DNA from: Torpedo marmorata
Lineage: Eukaryota
Length of the DNA stretch: 64,000 bases
Reading direction: 5' to 3'
NCBI GenBank assembly: GCA_977017645.1
Contig: OZ360219.1
Span: 22,692,001 to 22,756,000, forward strand
The notes beneath the pieces were generated by a model. The model saw only the letters and a list, made by a program, of their open reading frames with translations, had not been told where the DNA came from and did no database searches. The translations under genes and the position numbers were made by a program. Shown here in pieces: positions 13,003 through 46,564 of this stretch; position 1 is the stretch's first letter, and every line of letters starts with the position of its first letter.

Positions 13003-14340
13003 TTAGAACCCTTCAAAATCACTTTCGCTATCATTGTCTGAGGCAAAGATCTCGGCAAGCACATCCGGGGTCTCACTGTTTAAACAGTCATCGTACGGGT
13101 CCCAGTCTGTATCTGATGAGGCGTCTTCAGCTTCGTCGTCAGTGTCCCACAATAAATCATCTTCCGTACCATCAATTGCACAAGAGATACCGCACTTTTT
13201 AAACGATTTTATTATAGTCTCTACTTTCACTTTGTCCCATGCCTTGAGCACGAAGTCACACAGCACATCAAGCGATGCAGCACGCATTGCCCCGCCTTTT
13301 GTAAATGATTTTTCTGCACTCGACATCCATGTATTCCACTCTTCACGCACGTGGTCTTTGAATGGCTTGTTCAAGCAGACATCGAGAGGTTGCAATATTG
13401 ACGTCAAACCACCCGGGATAACCGCCATGTGAGTATTATGTTGTGCTAATGTACTTTTAGTCTTCTCAGTTAAGTGGCTACGAAACATATCCCAGACCAG
13501 CAAACTCCGTTCCTTGCGTAAACCGCCTGGCCGCCTGTTCCACACATTGTCTATCCATAGTTTTACACCATTTTCATCCATCCATCCTTTTTCATGAAAA
13601 TGTACAAAAATACCTGCAGGGAATTTTATTTTAGGTTTAAATTTGCGTTTGAAGATTACCATGGGTCTTAACTTTGTCCCGTCGGCCATGCACGATAACA
13701 CCACGGTAAACCTGGTCCTTTCATGTCCTGTACTCCTCATTTGCACAGTTTTCACACCTTTCCATTCCACTGTTCTATTGCCTATCATGTCAAAATTCAT
13801 GGGGGTTTCGTCCATGTTTCCAATATTTGCCAATGCAAACTTGTGTTTCTTCCGGTTACGTAAAATAAACTGGTGAAAACTTACAACTTTATGATCAAGA
13901 TCTTTTGGTAGTTTCTGAGCAATTTTAGTTTTTTGTCGTAATACCAGATTTTTCCTGTTCATAAAACGGTTGCACCAGCCTACTGAAGCTTCAAAATCAT
14001 TACTGAGTTCTGGGTGCGACTTTGCCCAGTTCAGTGCAAATGTCCTTATTTTATTTCGGGTGACTATGTAGCAATCTTGCCTCTGTTCACGTACCCATGC
14101 TGCTACATGATTTTCCAACTCTGGCCAACGAGTGATTCCTCTTCTCATGGAACATTGCCTTTTTGGTATTTTTCTTAAAGTCTCTTCTTTCTTCCTCCAA
14201 TCTCTTACCAACTTCTCATATATACCAAATTTTCTTGCAGCAGCACAGTTGTTGGTTTTCTTTGCCATTTCTACTACTTTCAATTTAAAACTCGCCTCAT
14301 ACTTTCGTCATTTCAATTGAGCCTTCAATGGAGCCTCCAT
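13003..14340 (-). pseudogene. pogo transposase (Brinker-like DBD, CENP-B HTH, DDE_1); 445 codons with one stop at codon 11
   Basis: MEAPLKAQLK*RKYEASFKLKVVEMA...; NMDETP, LVWDMFRSH, LQPLDVC with 35 residues between the 2nd and 3rd D; acidic tail. Confidence 0.9.
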
Positions 14341-29052: not shown

Positions 29053-32000
29053 AGCACTTCTTCCGAACCTATCACCACTTTAGCGGCGAGAACCGCTTCT
29101 CGAACAATGGAGGGGGGTAACACTGGGAATAGAAGACCAGTGTTCTTTATAGGGGTTTTTCTTCTTATCTTATTACTTCTTTTTTTCATTCTAATAGAGG
29201 AGGACATATGTATGCAAATGAGTAAGAGGGATACGCTGGTGGATCTGATTGACAGGGAAGGATTATTATTATTTTATTATGGGGGATTCTAAGAGTATAA
29301 ACTTAGTTAGTATTAATATAAATGGGCTTAACAATCCAATTAAAAGGAAAAGAACTTTGACATATATAAAGAAATTGAAGGTAGATATAGCCTTTTTACA
29401 AGAAACTCACTTGACGGATGTTGAACATCAGAAATTGAAAAGAGATTGGGTAGGACATGTTGTAGCTTCATCATTTAATTCTAGAGCAAGGGGAGTTGCT
29501 ATTTTAGTTAATAAAAAGTTGCCCTTCAGGATACAATCGACAGTCATAGATACGGCAGGTAGATATGCTTTGATTTATTGCCAAATTTATTCAGAATTTT
29601 GGACTCTTATGAATTTGTATGTGTCAAATCCAGATGATGAACAGTTTATTCAAGATGCTTTTTTACATTTATCAGATGCCAAAGATAACATTTTAGTTGG
29701 TGGTGATTTCAATTGTTGTTTAAATGCAATAATGGATAAAACTTCCAAAACAGTTGTTAGACCAAAAATAGTGAAGAAGATAGTTAATTTGATGGAGGAT
29801 TTAAATTTGGTAGATATTTGGAGAAAATTAAAGCCTAGGGAGAAGGATTATTCATTCTACTCATTTAGACATAATTCTTTTTCAAGGATAGATTTATTTT
29901 TATTGTCTTCACAACTTCAGGAAAGAATAACACAGATATCTTATAAAGCAAGAATAATTTCGGATCATTCACCTTTATTAATGACGTGTATAATTCCAGA
30001 GAAAGAAAAGACTATTTATAACTGGAGATTTGATTCTTTATTATTGAAAAGGAAGGATTTTTGTGAATATATGAGACGAGAAATTCAGGAATTTTTAAGA
30101 GTAAATAATAATTCGGTAGATGATAAATTTATGGTATGGGAAGCTTTGAAAGCTTATTTAAGAGGTTTAACAATAAGTTTTTCAGCAAAGATAAAAAAAG
30201 ATTATTTGAGAGAAGAAGAAAAATTAGAGAAGGAGATTGAAATTATGGAAAAAGATTCACAGAGAAACCGGTCTATTCTTAAGAGGAACCGTTTAGTAAG
30301 GAAGAAATTACATTATAATTTATTGCAAACGCGTAAGACTGAAAAATTAATAGTAAGAACAAAACAAAGATATTATGAATTAGGGGAAAAGGCACACAAG
30401 GTGTTATCATGGCAATTGAAAAAAGAGCAAGTTTCAAAAACAATTAATGCTATAAGGAAGAGAAATACAGGGGTAATAACATATAAGCCACAAGAAATAA
30501 ATGAATCTTTTAAAGAATATTATCAGAATTTATATAGATCTGAGACAGATCAAGATGAAACGAAGATAAATAGATTTTTATCTAAAATTACTTTACCTAA
30601 ATTGACTGTTCAAAGTAAATATTCTTTGGATTTACCTTTTACGATGAGAGAAGTTACTGAAGCAATATCGACGTTGAGAAGTGGTAAATCTCCAGGTGAT
30701 GATGGATTTCCAGTAGAATTTTATAAAGAATTTAAAGATTTATTGATACCTTTGTATATGGAGGTATTGAATCAAGTTATGGAAACTCATTTGTTACCGA
30801 AGACATTTTTAAATGCTATTATTACGGTTATACCAAAGAAGGATAGAGATGTATTAAAAACAGAGTCTTATAGGCCTATTTCACTGTTAAATGTAGATTA
30901 TAAGATAATGGCGAAAATTTTAGCAAATAGATTAGCTAAATGTCTACCACATTTAATACATTCGGATCAAGCCGGATTTATTAAAAATAGATATTCGAAA
31001 GATAATATAGCTAGATTGTTAAGCTTAATTAATGTATATAAGAAGAAACAAGATCTGCCACTGGTGGTAACATTGGATGCAGAAAAGGCATTTGATAGAG
31101 TAGAGTGGAATTTTTTATTTAAGGTTTTGGAAAAATTTGGATTTGGAGATAACTTTATAAATTGGATTAAAACTATATATAAGGAACCTACGGCTAAAGT
31201 AGTTACAAATGGACAGATATCGCAAAAGTTTTTGTTATCAAGATCAACACGACAGGGATGTCCTTTATCCCCTGCTTTGTTTGTGTTGGTAATAGAACCT
31301 TTAGCAGAAATGATTAGAGAAGATATAAATATAATGGGAATAAAGGTGGGTAGGGAAGAGCATAAGATTAGTTTGTTTGCAGATGATGTATTAATATATA
31401 TGACAAAATCTGTTACGTCACTTCAACAATTGGCTATTATATTGACAGAATATGGTGAGATATCAGGATACAAGATTAATTCAGATAAAAGTGAGATTTT
31501 GGCTTTATCGCAAGGGGATTATACTAGATGTAAAGAAGTTACAGACTTTAAGTGGACTACAGAGAGTATTAAATATTTGGGAGTTAAAGTAGATACAAAT
31601 TTGGAAAATTTGTATAAATTAAATTATACACCTTTATTTACTAAAATAAAAAAAGATTTAGAGCTTTGGAAAGACTTACCGATAACGTTGATGGGAAGAG
31701 TAAATTGTATTAAAATGAATGTTTTTCCAAGAATTCAATATCTTTTTCAATCGATTCCTTATGGTATTCCAAATAAATTTTTTAAAGATTTAAAATTTAT
31801 TGTTAGGAAATTTCTATGGAAAGGAAAGTTGGCAAGAGTAAGTATAGATAAATTAACATGGAATTATGAAATGGGAGGATTACAACTTCCTAATTTTCAA
31901 CATTATTATAAAGTAGCTCAGTTAAAATTTATTAATGAATTTTTTGATTTGGATAAAACTTCTGCTTGGATTAATATAGAATTGAATAATATGGGAGAAA

Positions 32001-33270
32001 TACATAAAGAAGATATTATTTATAAATGGAACCCTAAATTATTATTACTTAAAAAGAAAAAAACACCAATTATTAAACATTTGTTGGAAATTTGGTCGCA
32101 AGTAGATAAGGAGATAGGTCAAAAAGGATTAATTTCTTTAAATACACCAATATATCAGAATCCACTTTTACCATTTTCTATGGATAATCAATTACTTAAA
32201 TTATGGTTTTTAAAGGGAGTTAAGACATTAAAAGATTGTTTTGAAGCAGGTAAATTTGTTACCTTTCAGAGGTTAAAGGAAAAATTTAATATATTAGATA
32301 ATACAATGTTAGTTTATTTTCAAGTTAGAGCTTTTTTGATTGAAAGATTAGGGAATGAATTAACAGTATTAAGACAAAGTGAATTGGAGTTATTAATTAC
32401 TAAAGTTAATGTTAATAAATTTATATCACAGATGTACAAGTTGTTTCAAAGAAAAATGTCTAAGGTAGGAGAGCATAAGTCTAGATTGAAATGGGAGTCT
32501 GATTTGAATGTTAATATAGATGAAAAACATTGGAAAGATTTATGTAAACTAAGTATGACAAAAGTTATTAATGTGAGATATAGATTAGTACAATATAATT
32601 TTTTTCATCAATTGTATTTGACACCTAGAAAATTGAAGAAATTTAACCCAGCGTTATCAGATACGTGTTTCAGATGTAAAACTGAAATAGGATCTTTTGT
32701 ACATTGTACATGGTCATGTTCAAAGATTCAAGAATTTTGGTTGAAAGTTAAGAATTTTTTAGAAAGAATTTTTAATGTTGAAATTGCAATGGATCCTATG
32801 TTATTTTTATTTGGAGACATTAAAAAATTTAGTATTAGACATAAATTGAATATGTATCAAGTAGAATTTTTACGTATAATATTAGCAATTTCAAAAAAAT
32901 GTATAGCTATTACTTGGAAATCGGATGTTGATTTAAATTTAGAACGATGGCATGCAGAGTTACGGTCATGTATACCATTGGAAAAAATTACCTATAATTT
33001 ATGAAATAAATATCATTCTTTTTTAAAAATTTGGGGCCCATATACGAGGATTATGGGTTTAACATTGTGAATTCTCTGGATATTAGACCTACCGGCGAAA
33101 CAACCTCTAAGATATATTAGTGTTTTCTTTTTTAAGCTTATTGACTCCTCGTTCTATCTTTATATCTCTACTTTTTCTTTTATCTTTACTATTATTATTT
33201 TATATTTTTTAAATTAGATTGGGGGGTATAAAAAAAAAAAAATAAAAAGAAAAAAAAAAAAAAAAAATAA
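29053..33270 (+). mobile_element. Young L1 (element B), truncated in the inter-ORF spacer and inserted antiparallel into element A
   Basis: 16-bp TSD aaaaatttcctaataa 29037-29052 / 33271-33286; ~40-nt A tail. Confidence 0.93.
29279..33004 (+). CDS. L1 ORF2p (APE endonuclease, RT, CCHC); 1241 aa from the ATG, last 22 aa lost to a TGA
   Basis: NINGL, FLQETH, GGDFN, SRIDLF, SDHSP, QGCPLSP, FADD, CFRC...HCTWSC. Reading continues past the stop (NKYHSFLKIWGPY) to a TGA at 33070, as in sister copies. Confidence 0.93.
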   Translation: MGDSKSINLVSININGLNNPIKRKRTLTYIKKLKVDIAFLQETHLTDVEHQKLKRDWVGHVVASSFNSRARGVAILVNKKLPFRIQSTVIDTAGRYALIYCQIYSEFWTLMNLYVSNPDDEQFIQDAFLHLSDAKDNILVGGDFNCCLNAIMDKTSKTVVRPKIVKKIVNLMEDLNLVDIWRKLKPREKDYSFYSFRHNSFSRIDLFLLSSQLQERITQISYKARIISDHSPLLMTCIIPEKEKTIYNWRFDSLLLKRKDFCEYMRREIQEFLRVNNNSVDDKFMVWEALKAYLRGLTISFSAKIKKDYLREEEKLEKEIEIMEKDSQRNRSILKRNRLVRKKLHYNLLQTRKTEKLIVRTKQRYYELGEKAHKVLSWQLKKEQVSKTINAIRKRNTGVITYKPQEINESFKEYYQNLYRSETDQDETKINRFLSKITLPKLTVQSKYSLDLPFTMREVTEAISTLRSGKSPGDDGFPVEFYKEFKDLLIPLYMEVLNQVMETHLLPKTFLNAIITVIPKKDRDVLKTESYRPISLLNVDYKIMAKILANRLAKCLPHLIHSDQAGFIKNRYSKDNIARLLSLINVYKKKQDLPLVVTLDAEKAFDRVEWNFLFKVLEKFGFGDNFINWIKTIYKEPTAKVVTNGQISQKFLLSRSTRQGCPLSPALFVLVIEPLAEMIREDINIMGIKVGREEHKISLFADDVLIYMTKSVTSLQQLAIILTEYGEISGYKINSDKSEILALSQGDYTRCKEVTDFKWTTESIKYLGVKVDTNLENLYKLNYTPLFTKIKKDLELWKDLPITLMGRVNCIKMNVFPRIQYLFQSIPYGIPNKFFKDLKFIVRKFLWKGKLARVSIDKLTWNYEMGGLQLPNFQHYYKVAQLKFINEFFDLDKTSAWINIELNNMGEIHKEDIIYKWNPKLLLLKKKKTPIIKHLLEIWSQVDKEIGQKGLISLNTPIYQNPLLPFSMDNQLLKLWFLKGVKTLKDCFEAGKFVTFQRLKEKFNILDNTMLVYFQVRAFLIERLGNELTVLRQSELELLITKVNVNKFISQMYKLFQRKMSKVGEHKSRLKWESDLNVNIDEKHWKDLCKLSMTKVINVRYRLVQYNFFHQLYLTPRKLKKFNPALSDTCFRCKTEIGSFVHCTWSCSKIQEFWLKVKNFLERIFNVEIAMDPMLFLFGDIKKFSIRHKLNMYQVEFLRIILAISKKCIAITWKSDVDLNLERWHAELRSCIPLEKITYNL

Positions 33271-36023
33271 AAAAATTTCCTAATAATAAAATTTAAATCT
33301 TTAAAATTTTTTTGAGGAATTCCAAAAGGAATTGATTGAAAAAGATACTGAATTCTTGGAAAAATATTCATTTTAATACAATTTACTCTTCCCATTAAAG
33401 TTATGGGTAAATCTTTCCAATTCTCTAAATCTTTCTTTATTTTCACAAATAATGGTAGATAATTTAATTTATATAAATTTTCCAATTTTGTATCAACCTT
33501 AACTCCCAAATATTTAATTCCTTCTTTAGCCCATTTAAATTGTGTAATTTCTTTACATCTAGTATAATCACCTTGAGATAAAGCCATTATTTCACTTTTA
33601 TCAGAATTAATTTTATATCCAGATATTTCACCATATTCTCTTAATATGATAGATAGTTGTTGAAGTGATATAATAGATTTTGTCATCTATATCAATACAT
33701 CATCTGCAAACAAACTAATCTTATGTTCTTCCATACCAACTTTAATACCCACTATCTTAGGGTCTTTTCTAACTAATTCAGCCAAAGGTTCTATCGCCAA
33801 AACAAATAAGGCTGGTGACAGAGGACATCCCTGTCTCGTTGAGCGTGTTAAAGAAAATTTTGGCGATATTTGTCCATTTGTAATTACTTTAGCTGATGGT
33901 TCTTTATATATAGTTTTAATCCAATTTATAAATGTATTTCCAAAACCAAATTTTTCTAATACCTTAAATAAAAAATTCCATTCTAATCTATCAAAAGCCT
34001 TTTCAGCGTCTAATGTTACAACTAATGGTAGATCTTGTTTCTTTTTATGCAAACTAATTAAACTAATTAATCTAGCTATATTATCTTTTGAATATCTATT
34101 TTTAATAAAACCAGCTTGATCTAGATGTATCAAATCTGGCAAATATTTAGCCATTCTGTTTGCTAAAATTTTTGCCATTATTTTATAATCTACATTTAAT
34201 AATGAAATAGGTCTATATGATTCAGTTTTTAATACATCCCTATCCTTCTTTGGTATAACTGTAATTATAGCATTTAAAAATGTTTTCGGTAATAAATGAG
34301 TTTCCGTAATTTGATCTAGTACTTCCATATATGGAGGTATTAATAAATCTTTAAATTCTTTATAAAATTCTGATGGAAACCCGTCATCACCCGGAGATTT
34401 ACCACTCTTCAACGAAGCAAAAACTTCACTAACTTCCCTCATTGTAAAAGGTAGATCTAAAGAATCTCTACTCTGAATGTTCAATTTAGGTAATGTGATT
34501 TTGGATAGGAATCTATTAATTTTAGAATCGTCTTGGTCAATCTGCGATTTATATAAATTCTGATAATAATCTTTAAAAGATTCATTTATCTCTTGAGGTT
34601 TATAAGTTATTTCTCCAGTATTTTTCTTCCTTATAGCATTTATAGTTTTAGAAACTTGTTCCTTTTTCAATTGCCATGCCAAAACCTTATGGGCTCTTTC
34701 CCCTAATTCATAATATCTTTGTTTAGTTTTCTCAATTAATTTTTCCATTTTATGTGTTTGTAACAAATTTCTTCCCTATTAAACGATTTCTTTTTTGAAT
34801 TGATCTATTTCTCTGTAAATCCTTTTCCATAAGTTCAATTTCCTTCTCAAGTTTTTCTGATTCCTTAAGATAATCTTTCTTAATTTTAACTGACTAGCTT
34901 ATTATTAGACCCCTTAAATAAGCTTTTAAAGCTTCCCACACAATAAATTTATTATTAATAGAATTAGCATTTATTCGCAAAAATTCCTGAATTTCTCTTC
35001 TTATGTATTCACAAAAATCTTTCCTTTTTAATAAAGACGGATCAAATCTCCAATTATATATAGTTTTTTCTTTTTCCGGAATTATACAAGACAATAATAA
35101 AGGCGAATAATTTTGAATGTAGTTGATGTATCTTATGTACCTGTTTGGCTGTAGAAAGAATTTTGGTATATCAGTCAATTGTTCTCATGTAAATGACAAT
35201 AAACTTACATTGAACATTGGGTATCCCAATATCCCATAAAAAGTCAAATTGCCTTAGTGTAGAGAAAATCCTGCATAAATCAATTGTATGTTGCTAGTTA
35301 CTCATTGGAAGTTTAATTTACCAAGTTAACATACCTCAAAAGCAAACTTTTGAAAAAAAAAGTGGAACTTTATATTGGTTAAGATTGCTATTTGAACTAC
35401 TACTTGCATTTCAATTCTAATTCTTGCTGTTGAAAACAGAGGGAAAGAAAATCACCCACTATTGATATGGTGCTAAACACTTAATGGACAGTAAAATTCC
35501 TAATCTGGTTTGCAAGGCACTTTGGTGATGTCGGACAATCAGATTTTCCAGATTATTGGACATTATTAATGCAAAATAGCTTTAATTCACTTATATAAAG
35601 ATGTTACACAGTAGAACACATTTTCAAGATCAAAGAAAGCATGGGAACTGGTGCCCTGTTGTGTGAGAGTGGCCCGGTGTGTGAAATAATTCCCACCATC
35701 CTCGCTACATCCCATAGTATCTTCGCATGAAACCTTCCCTTTTCCCCAATAGCTAGAGCCCATAATCACACAAAAAACTGACTTAAACAAAATGCAAAAA
35801 AAACCAGAAGCTGTAAATCTGAAAGTAAAACTAAAAATGCTGCAAATTTTCAGGTCTGACAGCATTGGTGGAGAGAGAAAAACAGAATTAACATTTCAAG
35901 TCACTGGTACATGATCACAATTGTGCTGTACGGTTTAGAATGACATACAACATTAAATGCACACATTTCTAATTAGGGAAGTTCATTTGTTCGTTTTCAA
36001 GAGCTTTATTCAGTACACAAGTA

Positions 36024-39190: not shown

Positions 39191-40146
39191 CTGTTGACAG
39201 AAGGAAATAATAAACAAATATAACGAATTACTGTGCCAATCACCAGAAATATCACTGAGAATGCTTTTGTCGTCACAAAATAGAGTACATTTCATATTTT
39301 GATAATAGCAGATACTAAATAACGAAAATTGTATGCAATGCCATAAAGCATCACAAATACAAATTGTATGAATAAATTAGTGCATTACTATCGATAAGTG
39401 AACTTATAATCACTGAACAAGTTACATGTCACATATGATGGGCAAAATTCAGTTCACAACCAGAAAAATTATATAAAAAGAAGAAATTTGATTAAAGAGC
39501 ACTTGTAAGAAAGCAGCTGCAGACAACAGTAAATTGAACTCTGGAATATTTTATAAACAAAATGCAAGTCATCGTGAATGCTCAGACTAATAAGCATTCA
39601 AGAAAATAACTTCAGAGATCAAAAAGGCACAGTAAAATGTTAAGTGGGGACTGTAGCTGTCTTTATAAAGGGGATGAAGTGAAGGTTACATTAAGCGCAC
39701 CATAAAATATTAGACAATGTAAAAAATAAAAACTGAAGGTATTCCTGAAAATGGGAAGTCACCTTGTTCAGATAGAATCAAGCCTGGGTCATTAACTGAA
39801 GCAAAGAAAAAAAAAATCACAGGCAATTTTTCAATCTTTCGATTAGATTATTGGTTATGGCAGCAGCATCATAGAATTATGAATGATGTACTAAAAGAAA
39901 GGGCAAAAATTGAGTGAACACAAGTTAATAAATACTCATGCTGGTGATACTTGTGTCTAACAACTAAAATATTTGATCAGGTCATTCAGCGGATGTTGTG
40001 TATATGGATTTCTAGAGGCATTGAATGAAGTACACTTCAAACGATACTAAAAGTTAGGTTAAAAGCATGAGCTTAAAAGAGAAAAGCAATAAAATTCAGG
40101 GATAAAACCTGAAGCGCTCAGATTCAGCAAATGAAGAGAAGATCAT

Positions 40147-40829
40147 TGTAAGAGCCATAGGCTCACTACTTGCCCGATGTTTTGGCCGCGGGCGCCGGCG
40201 GTGTTCCGGGGCCCGTGGGCCTCTTCCATTAGGCTGCACGCGCGAGTGCCGCCACCGCTTGCGGAGCTGGAGGGTGGCGGCGCTTGCGTGGTTGGCTCGG
40301 CGGCTTCGGCCGGCGCATCCATCAGTGCACATGCGCACTGATGGACTGGGTCGACGCGTGCGCGGTTGTCTCAGCCCTGGCGGCGAGCGGTTGGAGCCGG
40401 GGCCAGCGCGTGTACTACGGAGCATGCGCGGGTGGGACCTGCGCGTTTAAATATAGGTTCCCCCGCGCGAGTCGACAGTTGAAAACCTGAGGAGGGTGAG
40501 TTGGGTGTCGACAATTCCTGTCGACCGTTTAGGACACGTTTGATACGTTTAGGATCGTTTGATATCGTTTAGGATACGTTTTAACATCGTTTAACACGTT
40601 TTGGAACACCTTTTATAACTTTTTAAAATCGTTTTAGATCCTTTTACATTGTTTTACCTCACTTCAAGAAATGTTTGTATTGAAGTCACTTGAAGATTAC
40701 TGCAAGTCAAATGTAAATAAAGGTTTTTGAACATTTTGGACTTTGCTAGTAAATTAATGAAAACGCGTCGCAGACAAACACCTAACTTAGCCTCCAAGTG
40801 ACTATTTTTTATTGGACGAAGTCGCTACA
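40147..40829 (+). repeat. BEL 5' LTR (683 bp) with CpG-rich U3
   Basis: Direct repeat of 45258-45961; TATA-like tttaaatata 40446-40455; AATAAA near 40716. Confidence 0.95.
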
Positions 40830-41258
40830 TTAAGTCGACAGGAAATTGTTGTACTAAGTCGACAGGAAATTGTTGTATTAAGTCGACAGGAAAGGTCGCT
40901 GAAACGGAAAATAGGATAGGAAGGAGAAGCCAGGAGGGTCAGTGAGGTTTTCAGATACATAAGGACCACACTTAGCCTCCAAGTGACCAACGTTGGATCG
41001 AAGTCACCGCAACCTACATAGTCAATAAAGAGCTGGCTGTTTGGAACAGAAAATAGAAGGAAAGAAGATAAAAAAAACTCGTTTGTGGATTGCAGCACAT
41101 TACAGTCAGTTGAAGTGGTTGGCATAAGTCTGTGGACTCCTTCTGTGTATCTTTAGTAAGTAAGAACACAGATTGGAATTGCTGCCGCTGGTCCATTGGG
41201 GACTGTTGTTTGGCTGGTATTGTGTATGCTTGAAGGAAAGAGGAACTAGACGAGTAAA

Positions 41259-44010
41259 ATGGCCGCAGCAGCCTCTGACACAGCAGCTACTGATATATCA
41301 GCAGCTGGCGCAGCAACCGCTGATGTTGCTGTTGAGGACCAACGTATTGAAGACATGAAGGTTTCGGATATTAAAGAAGAATTGAAGTGACTGAAAAAGG
41401 ACATAAGAGGAAATAAAAGGGTTCTTATCGAAAGATTGAAGCAGGCAAAGGATGAAGAGGCAGCTTCATTAAATGAACAAGAAGATAACTTGGAAATGGC
41501 TGAAATTGTGTCAACAAATGATGAAGAAATTAAAGTGGTTAAAGATGCAAAGGATATACAATTTGAATTGAATAAAGAGGTAAGTATGAAGACTACATAT
41601 GAACTGCAGAACGAAATACAAGCAAGTGACAGTGTCTCAAATGCTGAAAGCAGGAGAAGCAAAAGAAGTTCTGGTTCGAGCTCCAGAGTTTCTCGTACTA
41701 CAAGTTCTGCATCGTCACGTACAGAGATTGATGTTGACTTGGCCGCTCTTTTTGCACAACAAAAAACGCTTAAGGAGAAACATATTTTAGAACAAAAGGA
41801 GGAGCAGATAAGACAAAAGGAGGTGCAGCTAAAGGAGCAGCTAAGACAAAAGGAGGAGCAGATAAGACAAAATGAGAAGCAGCTAATGGAGCAGCTAAGA
41901 CAAGAGAAGGAGCAGCTAAGGCAGAGAAAAGAACAGCAGGAGCTGGAAGCAAACATTGCTATTGCCAAGGCAGAAAAGAAAGCAATAGAAGGCTCAATGG
42001 TATCTGGTGCTAGCAGTAAATTATCTAAATTGTCTGATAATAAAGGGTCATATTTAAAAAAGGAGTCACAGGAAAAGAAACCAACCAAAAGGATAGATAT
42101 TTTAGAACCAAGGATACAAAACTTACATATACAAGGACAAACCTTTCAAGGGCATATTGGTATCGAGTCATATGTACCAATAGTAACATCTGAAGACAAG
42201 GCTGCGGCTTGGGTTCGGTCGAACGAAGCAGCTTCTTTGTTATTTGAGTCAAGAATCAGAAATATGGAAGAAACTACACCAGTGAGGTTTCCAGATACAT
42301 TGCATGCAACAAGAGACAGTGAACAGAGCAATGTATTGACATCCAAGGAAAGACAAAATGAAATTGCTGCATCATTGTTTCAGTTACAGTCTCTCTCTTC
42401 TTTACCCAAAAAAGAGATACAAACCTTTGATGGTGATCCACTTCAATATCAATCATTTATGAGATCTTTCAAACGCAATATTGAAGATAAATGCCAAGAT
42501 CGTGATGAATGTCTTTATTATTTGGAAATGTTTACAAAGGGACATCCAAAAGAACTGGTAAAGAGTTGTAAACAAATGTCTTCAGGAAGAGGATTAGACA
42601 AAGCTAAGGCTTTATTGGAACAATATTTTGGCAACAAGCATCGAATTGCTTTAGCTTATATGGATAAAGCTCTTAATTGGACATCAATAAAACAAAATGA
42701 TGTAAAGGCTCTGCAAGAATATACTCTGTTTTTAAGAGGATGTTGTAATGCTATGGAAGAAATCGATAATATTCGTGAGCTTGAAGTGCATAGTAATATG
42801 CGAATCATCTTAGAAAAATTACCTTACAAGTTATGGGATAGATGGAGAAATTTGGCTTGTGATTTACAAGTAGATTACGGTCGAAAGAGTACCTTAAAGG
42901 ATTTGGTAAATTTTCTTGAACGACGGGTGTACGTTGAAACAGATCCACTATATGGAAATGCCAGAGATAATTCAATGGGCAAAGATGTAAAGAAGTCTAA
43001 TACACAGTCTAGTCCGAAAGTAAAAAGGAGTACCTTTGCTACTAATGTGCAAGTTATAAGTAAAGGACAAAGTAAATAAGGAAAAGGAAAGTTTGCCTAA
43101 TGAAAAGAGTTGTTTGTTCTGTAAAGGTGGACATGCTTTGGAAATGTGTTTACGATTGGAAAAGAAGGAACATAAGGAGAAGATCGCTTTCTTAAAGGAA
43201 AATGGAATATGTTTTAGCTGTTTGTGTAAAGGACACATCAGTAAAAACTGCGAGAAGCGAATTAATTGTAACATATGCAATTTGAAACATCCTAGAATTT
43301 TGCATATCCATAACAGAAACAAGGAATTGGGAAAAGAGCAAACAGAAACAAAGGAAACAACAGAAAATAATGTTATAACCTCGGTTCAGACAAGTGGTCT
43401 TACTGGGGCCAGAATGAATAACTGCAAACTTTCAATAGTGCCTGTACAAGTCAAGACCAAGAAAGGGGATGTAATAGTTAAAACATATGCATTTTTAGAT
43501 CCAGGCAGCACTGCTTCCTTTTGCACGGAATGACTAATGAATAAACTTAATATTCAAGGAAGAAGATCAAGAATTATGTTAAGAACAATGGGACAAGAAA
43601 AGGTTGTTGAAACTAACATTGTTTCAGGCTTAGAGGTTGCTGGATTGGATGACAAAAAATTTTGTGATCTTCCAAGTGTATATACTCAGAAGACTATGCC
43701 TGTGAATGAAGGAAATATTCCTCATCAAAGGGATATCCATCATTTAGCTTATCTGTGGAAGGTTTATTTACCTGAAATTAATTCTGAGATAGAAATGCTG
43801 ATTGGTTCAGATGTGCCAAAGGTTTTGGAACCGAAAGAAGTAATAGAGAGTAAAAGGAATGGACCTTACGCTATTAGAACCAAGTTTGGTTGGACAATCA
43901 ATGGACCACTGGAAAGAAATAATGATACTGCTCAGGAACAGTTAGCGATAAATATTAATAGAATTTCGGTTGAGAAAGTTGAAGAGTTAAGCGAAGAGCA
44001 AAAACCGTGA
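41259..44010 (+). pseudogene. BEL gag-protease with an N-terminal SAP domain
   Basis: ATG 41259; in-frame TGA at 41388; frameshift ~43060; TGA at 43531; ORFs 41436-43079, 43093-43533 and 43537-44010. Confidence 0.85.
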
Positions 44011-44915
44011 CTAAGAAAATCACTTTTGAAGAAAAGAAAACAGATCAATGTGAAAATAAATCAATGGTATTTAAAACAACATTGAAGGAATTAATTTCGT
44101 CAGAAATGGATGAAAGTGAAGTATTAAAAAATGTTGCAAATAATACTATTGATCATTCATGTGTAATTGAATCCAATACAGGAATAAAACAAGTGACTGA
44201 AAACAAATCTGAATGTAGATTTTGTAGTTCAGAGATTACAACAGACAAAGCTAACGAAGAAATATTACAATGTGATGTAAAACTGGAAAACACAGAAAAC
44301 TGTACTGATGGAATAAAGAATATTGCGAATGATAATTTAATGCAATTGAATTCAGAGAAAAAAATGTTGAAAGGGGAATTGGAAATATTAGATAATCATG
44401 AAAACAGTAAACAGAAAGATTTAATTGTAAGTAAAACTCGCAAAGTCAGAAAGCGGAAGAAAAGAATAACTGCTGAAGAAATTAATACAGTTATCGAGGA
44501 AAGAGATTTAGCATTATCAAAATGTAAAAGGTTGGAGGAAGAGATTAATGTTTTGAAAGAGAACAAGTTATTGGTTAATAACACAAAACAATTAACAATG
44601 CAGAAAGAATGTGATATTGCATTGCAGAAATGTAACAAGCAAGACGAAGAAATTAAAAAATTTCAAGTTTGTCGCAACAGGATTGACAATGGAAATATCA
44701 ATGTATCACATGATATTTTGACTTCAGATCAAAGTATTAATTTCTCGAAAAGAACTGAGACCGAATTGAAAGTCGCAAAATTGGATTTGGAATTGCAGGA
44801 AAAAGCAATAGAAACAAGAGTGGTTAAACAGACCTGTTTAAAATCGAAAGGATCAAATAAATATTCAAATTCCAGTTCTGAGAGTTCAAATTCTTCACGA
44901 GAAGTGGAATACTGA
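44007..44915 (+). CDS. Coiled-coil ORF replacing pol; contains MIPOL1-like segments
   Basis: 302 open codons with no RT motifs; RITAEEINTVIEERDLALSKCKRLEEEI and LELQEKAIETRVVKQT resemble MIPOL1 as recalled. Needs BLAST. Confidence 0.6.
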   Translation: MTKKITFEEKKTDQCENKSMVFKTTLKELISSEMDESEVLKNVANNTIDHSCVIESNTGIKQVTENKSECRFCSSEITTDKANEEILQCDVKLENTENCTDGIKNIANDNLMQLNSEKKMLKGELEILDNHENSKQKDLIVSKTRKVRKRKKRITAEEINTVIEERDLALSKCKRLEEEINVLKENKLLVNNTKQLTMQKECDIALQKCNKQDEEIKKFQVCRNRIDNGNINVSHDILTSDQSINFSKRTETELKVAKLDLELQEKAIETRVVKQTCLKSKGSNKYSNSSSESSNSSREVEY

Positions 44916-45257
44916 AAAATGAAATAAAGTGAAACGACATGTTGAAGAAGTGCCTTGTGTTAAATTCAAAAAGAAAGCTGTGTCTATTCTGTCTGAGGAA
45001 GATCTGAGGTTTACTGGTAGACGTTTGTAACCCAAGGATTCTACAGAAAATGGAGGAACTGTAATAATTACAAAATGACTTTATTTTGTTGAATTTTGTG
45101 TTTGTACTTTGCCCACTACACGGACTGTAGAGTGGGGAAGAAAGAAGAAAAGATTTGTATATTTGTTCGAATGTTATATGGTCATTGTTATTATAATGTT
45201 ATAGTTATGTAATTATTATTAGAGACGTTACATCTCATTATAATAATTAGAGGCCGG

Positions 45258-45961
45258 TGTAAGAGCCATAGGCTCACTACTTGCCCGATGTTTTGGCCGA
45301 TGTTTGGTGGTGTTCCGGGGCCCGTGGGCCTCTTCCATTAGGCTGCACGCGCAAGTGCCGCCACCGCTTGCGGAGCTGGAGGGTGGCAGCGCTCACGTGG
45401 TTGGCTCGGCGGCGGCGGCTTTGGCCGGGGCCGGCGTATCCATCAGTGCACATGCGCACTGATGGACTGGGTCGACGCGTGCGCGGTTGTCTCGGCCCCG
45501 GCGGCGAGCGGTTGGAGCCGGGGCCAGCGCGTGTACTACGGAGCATGCGCGGGTGGGACCTGCGCGTTTAAATATAGGTTCCCCCGCGCGAGTCGACAGT
45601 TGAAAACCTGAGGAGGGTGAGTTGGGTGTCGACAATTCCTGTCGACCGTTTTGACATCGTTTAGGACACGTTTGATACTTTTAGGATCGTTTGATATCGT
45701 TTAGGATACGTTTTAACATCGTTTAACACGTTTTGGAACACCTTTTATAACTTTTTTAAATCGTTTTAGATCCATTTACATTGTTTTACCTCACTTCAAG
45801 AAATGTTTGTATTGAAGTCACTTGAAGATTACTGCAAGTCAAATGTAAATAAAGGTTTTTGAACATTTTGGACTTTGCTAGTAAATTAATGAAAACGCGT
45901 CGCAGACAAACACGTAACTTAGCTTCCAAGCGACTATTTTTTATTGGACGAAGTCGCTACA
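45258..45961 (+). repeat. BEL 3' LTR (704 bp)
   Basis: Differs from the 5' LTR by roughly a dozen substitutions and a few indels (counted by eye). Confidence 0.95.
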
Positions 45962-46564
45962 ATCATCAATAGACAAAGAAGATTGGAGATGTTCAAAAGA
46001 CTGGAATAGGCCATGCTTAGTGGTCGCAGAGGACTGTGTAGAGCATAAAGGGTTTATAAAGGAAAGCAAGGGGGTTGGAGAGGGCCAGGAATGTTGGAAG
46101 ATTTGATGGGGTGAAAGAGGGGTGGGAGTGGAGAGGGGTAGAAGGCCAAGAGAATAAAGAGAGACACTTTTTACCATAGCATTAGTTAACTAAAATATCA
46201 CCTGTGATCTTGGTGAGGCTTTTTCAGAATAGTTATAAACATTTAACTGGAGGAATTCAAACATGGAGTTTCAGGAAACACGGTATGCCTTTAGAATCAT
46301 ACAACCCAGTAAAGGACTTGAGGAGAAAGGGGATTGGTGATGTTGAGTGGTGTTGGGAGGTAGATGCATTACCACAAATGCAAGACAAAAAGAGATGATA
46401 AATATCAAGGGATATACTGTAAATAAATATTCACACTTGCAGTTAGTGCAAAAAAAAAAGCAAATGACATTTCATGAGTGCAGGAAGATATGAATGGATA
46501 CAGTAAAGCACGAAATTTGATTTTTTGAGCATACTTATACCTATAACAAGATGGAAGCTGTTGA

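Follow-up and report, generated by a model that had tools for sequence, protein, structure and literature searches.

A SAP domain in place of the native Gag N-terminus in an enzyme-less BEL/Pao element, and its possible role as a nucleic-acid tether

A non-autonomous BEL/Pao element occupies positions 40147–45961 of the 64,000-nt stretch of DNA that was analysed here (‘the window’), and is bounded by a pair of LTRs 97% alike (96.9%; 659 of 680 aligned bases identical, with 3 gap runs) and by a 5-bp target duplication. SCAN-Gypsy, LINE and pogo-like elements crowd the surrounding DNA. There is a SCAN-domain Gypsy with integrase at 265–2537 (presumably of Gmr1-like domain order; no SAP domain was found in it), a Pogo/Tigger-like transposase with a Brinker DNA-binding domain and 434 open codons on the reverse strand at 13003–14307, and a LINE ORF2 of 1251 open codons with endonuclease and reverse transcriptase (RT) at 29249–33004, which faces a related copy head-on on the opposite strand (30317–31813 and 33273–34769, 84% alike over 1.5 kb). 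The BEL/Pao element itself reads as follows.

40142..40146, no strand: left target-site duplication (ATCAT); the same 5 bases recur at 45962–45966
40147..40829, forward: 5′ LTR, TG...CA, from alignment to the 3′ LTR
40830..41258, forward: 5′ leader with three motif copies and a copy of LTR sequence; no primer site assigned
41259..41345, forward: start codon and 29-residue Ala/Thr/Asp-rich leader
41346..41447, forward: SAP domain (residues 30–63, TGA at 41388–41390), from Pfam, structure model and fold search
41448..41600, forward: acidic linker, without homology to BEL relatives or significant match to the SLTM/SAFB flank
41601..43079, forward: remainder of the BEL/Pao Gag, DSVSN motif (conserved) onward
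within 41601..43079, forward: Ser-rich stretch of Gag
41792–41953, forward: expanded coiled-coil repeat of Gag
42426–42848, forward: DUF1759 capsid-region domain of Gag
43063..44001, forward: Cys/His knuckles and aspartic-protease region, from tblastn to relatives
43983..44915, forward: A-rich, MIPOL1-like coiled-coil ORF where RT–RNase H–integrase is expected
45258..45961, forward: 3′ LTR, followed by ATCAT

LTRs, target duplication, a DUF1759-bearing Gag and a protease region, the traits of BEL/Pao membership, are all present. The region 43063–44001 has no Pfam match and was placed by tblastn (50–63% identity to residues ~590–960 of relatives); the names knuckles and aspartic protease are assumed for it from the usual BEL/Pao layout. 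The element retains no part of RT, RNase H or integrase, all 28 full-length relatives compared ceasing to match at 43983–44028 with no pol homology beyond ~44030, and a Pfam scan found an RNA recognition motif (RRM) in none of its ORFs. Judged by its sequence, the element is a Gag–protease-only BEL/Pao derivative that has lost its enzymes. Its coding regions are 38–45% A, and the copy carries a frame break near 43060 and a stop at 43531. Directly after the 5′ LTR the leader has three copies of a short motif at 24-nt spacing (40831–40893), and further on an 18-nt duplicate of LTR sequence (40970–40987). The Gag coiled coil at 41792–41953 consists of tandem 12/21-nt units, is ~35 residues longer than in relatives and is a place where other copies have joints.

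The start codon at 41259 (context AAAATGG) shares its frame with the Gag ORF ending at 43077, and an in-frame stop at 41247, 12 nt upstream, excludes a longer N-terminus. The start, the TGA at 41388 and the intervening peptide in the Gag frame are thus present as the first-pass annotation had described them. When the TGA is read through (X placed at 41388–41390, giving 606 residues in all), Pfam SAP (PF02037) matches residues 30–63, nt 41346–41447, over positions 2–35 of the 37 in the profile; the score is 32.7 bits (E 5.3e-8) when residues 1–101 are searched and 28.5 bits for the full read-through, both above the curated cut-off of 23.9, which bears out the annotation's assignment of the domain. 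The ORF downstream of the TGA alone has no SAP match in Pfam, and the domain was therefore missed by the ORF track. Among PDB sequences the segment is closest to the SAP of MKL1 (E 4.6e-4) and next to that of hnRNPUL1. An AlphaFold2 model, whose alignment held 5 host SAP fragments and which leans towards them, is confident only at residues 31–60 (pLDDT 91–92), with helices at 35–42 and from 53; aided by those host rows, it has the helix-loop-helix fold with its conserved G, K, L, R, L core. Foldseek returned no match to it at E≤0.001, and the first 13 of the 21 proteins ranked, ERI1 and DEK included, are all SAP-bearing (rmsd 1.0–2.1 Å, all with E>0.001). All seven of the most conserved SAP columns are kept, while at least 13 of the 33 readable columns are unlike any host SAP compared. 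The chance of such conservation under random change is at most 0.018, a figure biased by the segment having been found for its SAP-likeness. A genuine SAP domain, as predicted from profile and model, is confirmed as fused to a BEL/Pao Gag, and it is the only one in six frames of the window.

The SAP domain of SAFB2 provides a point of reference. It binds double-stranded DNA weakly, in the micromolar range, via K53 and S54, with little specificity and a slight preference for AT, K53 being required for the binding (PMC9958909). The lysine equivalent to K53 is kept in the element, the equivalents of S31, S54 and R45 are changed, and the segment has 10 K/R against 7 D/E.

A search with the Gag core gave 67 BEL/Pao proteins of 985–2810 aa, the named ones from teleost fish, with 41–54% identity over the core in 66 of the 67 and a best identity of 54%. 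None of the 67 has a SAP domain, either in precomputed Pfam or by a local SAP profile, which gives them at most −0.1 bits and the element 41; within this set the domain is no general feature of BEL Gags, a possibility that the first-pass annotation had named as counting against its own reading. Homology to the closest relatives begins mostly at residues 107–121, just before the conserved DSVSN motif. A profile of the native N-terminus, for which 38 relatives supplied the region preceding DSVSN, finds 50 of the 67 (relatives outside its training set score 30–154 bits) and gives the element 0.7 bits. From the unmatched native profile together with the start of homology at DSVSN it follows that some 112 residues of the element's Gag are foreign, and profile comparison shows the predicted SAP segment to stand in for a native Gag N-terminal region of ~150 residues.

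The element's own family does not appear among the representative-protein matches, the Gag-core matches or 120 of the 235 panel hits, and no relative of the element was seen in metagenome or viral contigs. A word-indexed search with residues 1–110 against proteins of 333–1061 aa passed none of 1514 candidates, with lengths of 208–332 aa being covered by the exhaustive representative search only. Assembled public sequencing runs are more informative. Part of the stretch is present in seven of the eight runs listed (no RNA run is listed as carrying it, which has no bearing on expression), and four (X1, X2, X4 and X7, from 4 studies with 4 organism labels) were analysed, with 160,995, 1,224, 45 and 1,024 contigs, respectively. 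In all four, cover extends over the SAP region and continues unbroken towards Gag, and one 218-nt X4 contig spans the entire domain with 9 differences. At the stop a different base accounts for 87% of the summed depth (depth not being copy number) in X1, which may be the source sample, and for the whole of the depth in X2 (6 contigs), X4 (1) and X7 (8). At the two later breaks other copies differ as well, among 40 of the 512 difference rows. No contig among those listed bridges SAP to the Gag core, and we infer the linkage in other copies from the continuous cover. Given the cover in four runs and the absence of the stop from most of the depth, the domain looks to be family-wide and the stop a lesion of the present copy. 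The TGA leaves a 43-residue peptide, with the in-frame ATGs at 41496 and 41586 both past the domain, so that the present copy is dead for SAP–Gag function.

Two other aspects of these contigs concern the structure of the family. Loose ends at 41075–41080 suggest additional leader sequence in other copies. In X1, X2 and X7 the interior from 40888 to 45024 is far deeper than most of this copy's LTR, with a loose end ~25 nt into the LTR; it looks as though, across the family, a single conserved interior were flanked by many different LTR variants.

At the other end of the coding region, where the enzymes are expected, the ORF at 43983–44915 has 310 codons, is 45% A and is predicted to be a coiled coil. 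By Atlas feature similarity over residues 120–290 its top 3 clusters are MIPOL1 (0.96, 0.94 and 0.94), unrelated coiled coils reaching 0.92–0.93; the top match shares 161 of 256 features and 8 of the 10 best named matches agree, the call coming from one search by feature similarity in which MIPOL1 was expected beforehand. The likeness is strongest around 44370–44800. The ORF has no match in PDB, in an older Pfam copy or among 212 fetched proteins. It resembles MIPOL1 and would be a second foreign module in the element, and is probably a better-supported host capture than SAP. The first-pass annotation had a second host-derived module in the same element, drawn from SLTM/SAFB; the foreignness of SAP and the MIPOL1-like nature of the 3′ ORF stand, and the SLTM/SAFB derivation is suggestive.

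The reading that we prefer, at a probability of roughly 0.55, is that SAP was acquired and has been kept as a weak, predicted nucleic-acid tether on the Gag of an enzyme-less BEL element. The family would move with RT and integrase borrowed from an autonomous relative, the Gag alone being its own. The Ala-rich leader, SAP and acidic linker took the place of the native Gag N-terminal region in the founder, and their donor was presumably a nuclear protein of animals with a SAP domain, belonging to the SAFB/SLTM or the hnRNP-U-like class. Retroelements are known to switch templates while being reverse-transcribed, and a switch onto a co-packaged cellular mRNA may be the likeliest route. SAP would then have been amplified with the family and have drifted to the A-rich make-up of the element with its fold kept. 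SAP and linker are 44–45% A, the SAP DNA being 44% A; that composition, and a core intact despite the changed columns, suggests long residence under constraint. The domain would be a weak, sequence-unspecific tether that attaches Gag, or a cleaved N-terminal piece of it, to chromatin or else to cDNA or RNA of the element itself, and may in this way aid packaging or chromosome access. Tethering of Gag to DNA, as the first-pass annotation proposed, is a fair inference; foamy-virus Gag is reported to tether to chromatin (PMC7828637, in part).

Is the donor SLTM? That the segment was taken specifically from the 5′ end of a spliced SLTM mRNA of the host is possible, and we hold it tentatively and with more doubt than belief. 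An exhaustive phmmer search over 1.84 billion representatives, at an E threshold of 0.001, passed 21 proteins (12 with multiple SAP repeats, 1 unrelated and 8 with a single SAP), and 7 of the 8 single-SAP matches are of SLTM type, two of them so called by name and the others by sequence; the matches are, however, weak (E 6e-5 to 9e-4) in a search that favours short fragments. Identity over the core reaches 20/34 with amniote SLTM, the best found, against 15–17 with SAFB and 15–16 with two unnamed rows, in a panel biased by having been retrieved with SLTM terms (the out-of-register P0151 and P0182 are excluded from the ranges). Columns 8, 19, 26, 33 and 34 of the core profile agree with SLTM/SAFB, and every SLTM row has the Gln at column 33, which none of the SAFB or remaining rows has. 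Against this, the element's residue at columns 2, 4, 5, 9, 11, 16–18, 21 and 25 occurs in no SLTM/SAFB row, with columns 4, 5, 9, 16, 17 and 18 being fixed or nearly fixed in the 22 SLTM and 8 SAFB rows, and the family-fixed residues (LRV.DL and the RR/KR-N-L-D stretch) are not those of the element. With a profile of the SLTM core plus 25 residues the element comes first of 40 (37.9 vs 34.7), but with the SLTM core profile it is 4th of 40, below 3 unrelated SAP repeats.

What lies on either side of the core is of little help to SLTM. Once the low-complexity Ala-rich leader is removed the SLTM lead is lost and the top match is an unnamed non-SLTM SAP protein, P0016 (37.1 vs 33.1 bits; in the core-only phmmer the scores of the two leading rows are inflated, since each of these rows has the SAP domain twice). 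The Atlas names P0016 no further than ‘SAP domain-containing’, and any likeness to hnRNP U is our impression. The leader itself has 29 residues against 12 in all 15 fish SLTM rows, the 18–33 of SAFB being closer. The downstream flank alone is equalled by 303 and 789 of 1000 shuffles, with pairwise p of 0.07–0.61 (4 spliced rows), and the downstream ‘DNLEM’ motif was rejected as SLTM evidence in two tests, doing no better than shuffles. The first-pass annotation's comparison with the start of SLTM consequently survives in the core identity and fails in the motif.

The tree of SAP with SLTM and SAFB that the annotation had called for was built by maximum likelihood from 49 rows (selected from 121, near-identical and intron-read-through rows being omitted) and 41 columns. 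The element falls outside SAFB plus SLTM, in an open polytomy, instead of within them. AU tests rejected no grouping, whether with SLTM (p 0.26), with SLTM and SAFB (p 0.25) or with the P0016 group (p 0.31); even a control grouping (p 0.10) was spared, so that the data lack the power to decide the donor. The vertebrate SAP panel consisted of SLTM, SAFB and the two unnamed rows and held no transposon-borne SAP, and a cellular donor is accordingly not proven. Overall the sequence evidence for an origin in SLTM/SAFB is suggestive.

Irrespective of the donor, retention of SAP need not mean use. It could be a passenger, captured once, tolerated in a helper-dependent element for which the N-terminus was dispensable, and spread by hitch-hiking. 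The copy has moved recently, by the likeness of its LTRs, yet its SAP is already broken, and there has been drift at columns fixed in the SAFB family. One of these is the Arg whose loss is reported to have unfolded the SAFB2 SAP domain (PMC9958909, in part). Nevertheless a Leu at that column, as in the element, is found in 38% of other SAP repeats, no core column has been lost and most copies retain an open frame, and we regard a passenger as unlikely.

A different source would be another mobile element, such as a Zisupton-type transposase or the ORF of a SAP-bearing retroelement, with the domain arriving by recombination. Zisupton transposons and a Penelope-like element from Physarum are reported to contain SAP (PMC8557442, in part), the present element is about equally distant from several SAP classes and the window is dense in transposons. 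Nevertheless, none of the 21 representative matches is a recognizable transposon polyprotein, no second SAP is present in the window, and the order of start, Ala-rich leader, SAP and acidic tail is the layout of a SAFB-family N-terminus; such a source is decidedly unlikely. The composite claim that an abundant vertebrate BEL/Pao family has lost its enzymes and had its polyprotein rebuilt from a SAFB-family SAP and MIPOL1, with SAP anchoring the capsid on chromatin or competing with SAFB surveillance of the A-rich RNA of the family, is to our minds highly doubtful.

The first-pass annotation had also envisaged mimicry of a host silencing factor, for which we found no support; the element lacks the RRM and the ER region that SAFB proteins have. 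In a related form SAP would be an anti-silencing decoy, competing with SAFB/SLTM for the loci or transcripts of the element. SAFB proteins are reported to suppress A-rich L1 and LTR/ERV transcripts (PMC10901741, in part), and the A content of the element's coding regions would fit. That suppression works, however, through RNA binding, according to the same part of PMC10901741, and the element has SAP only, with no RRM, a SAP that in SAFB2 is a weak binder of little specificity (PMC9958909); a SAFB-family donor is, moreover, not established. A decoy we consider very improbable. Finally, a SAP match arising by chance or convergence from the native Gag N-terminus, which is also helical and K/E/I/L-rich and which MAFFT forces together with the SAP segment, is ruled out for practical purposes by the native-profile and SAP-profile scores given above.

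If, as the preferred reading of a retained tether would have it, SAP is under selection, then a helper-dependent element can succeed by refitting its capsid protein with cellular modules. A many-copy family of this kind provides data for what a BEL Gag N-terminus does, and were the donor SLTM/SAFB, a transposon would be carrying a piece of its own repressor.

How does the element compare with what is known? The fish BEL/Pao elements (Belpaoviridae) share with it TG...CA LTRs, the 5-bp duplication, DUF1759 Gag, knuckles and protease region, but the present element has SAP for the native Gag N-terminus and a MIPOL1-like ORF for RT, RNase H and integrase. The N-termini of SAFB1, SAFB2 and SLTM likewise have an Ala/Ser-rich leader, SAP, an acidic tail and the K53 equivalent, whereas the element is without an RRM/ER region, has family-fixed columns changed and falls outside their clade. 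A beetle protein, P0008, with the NCBI name ‘scaffold attachment factor B2-like’, has four SAP repeats and no RRM; it is possibly a transposon ORF, and Gags capped by SAP would then have a precedent. Gypsy elements of arthropods include some with a SAP-capped Gag. Chromatin-type modules are also carried by PHD-bearing BEL Gags and by foamy Gag, but there the domain is a different one and the elements are autonomous. The yeast protein matched by mosquito BEL-612 is a PHD protein. The match lies at the first 500 nt of that element (PMC3597677, supplement).

The main text of a BEL/Pao survey has no mention of ‘SAP’ (PMC3118150), and the text and 4 supplements of a survey of host domains in transposons have none of ‘SAP’, ‘SLTM’ or ‘SAFB’ (PMC3597677, whose first supplement may bear on the matter). 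Within the open literature we found neither a SAP-bearing BEL/Pao Gag nor a MIPOL1-bearing retrotransposon. In the SAP-bearing transposons Zisupton and Chlamys-1_pPol, compared here by description only (PMC8557442, in part), SAP is an accessory module on the transposase or inside the RT; in the present element it caps the capsid protein. Plant TR-GAG or GAG-PROT-only elements similarly keep Gag and protease with the enzymes absent, but are Copia/Gypsy derivatives for which the available part of PMC13570524 mentions no foreign modules at both ends, unlike this BEL/Pao element with both. Transposon proteins with accessory chromatin domains, and LTR elements reduced to Gag, were each known separately; a BEL/Pao Gag with a SAP front end was encountered neither among the 67 relatives nor in the protein collections and open literature searched.
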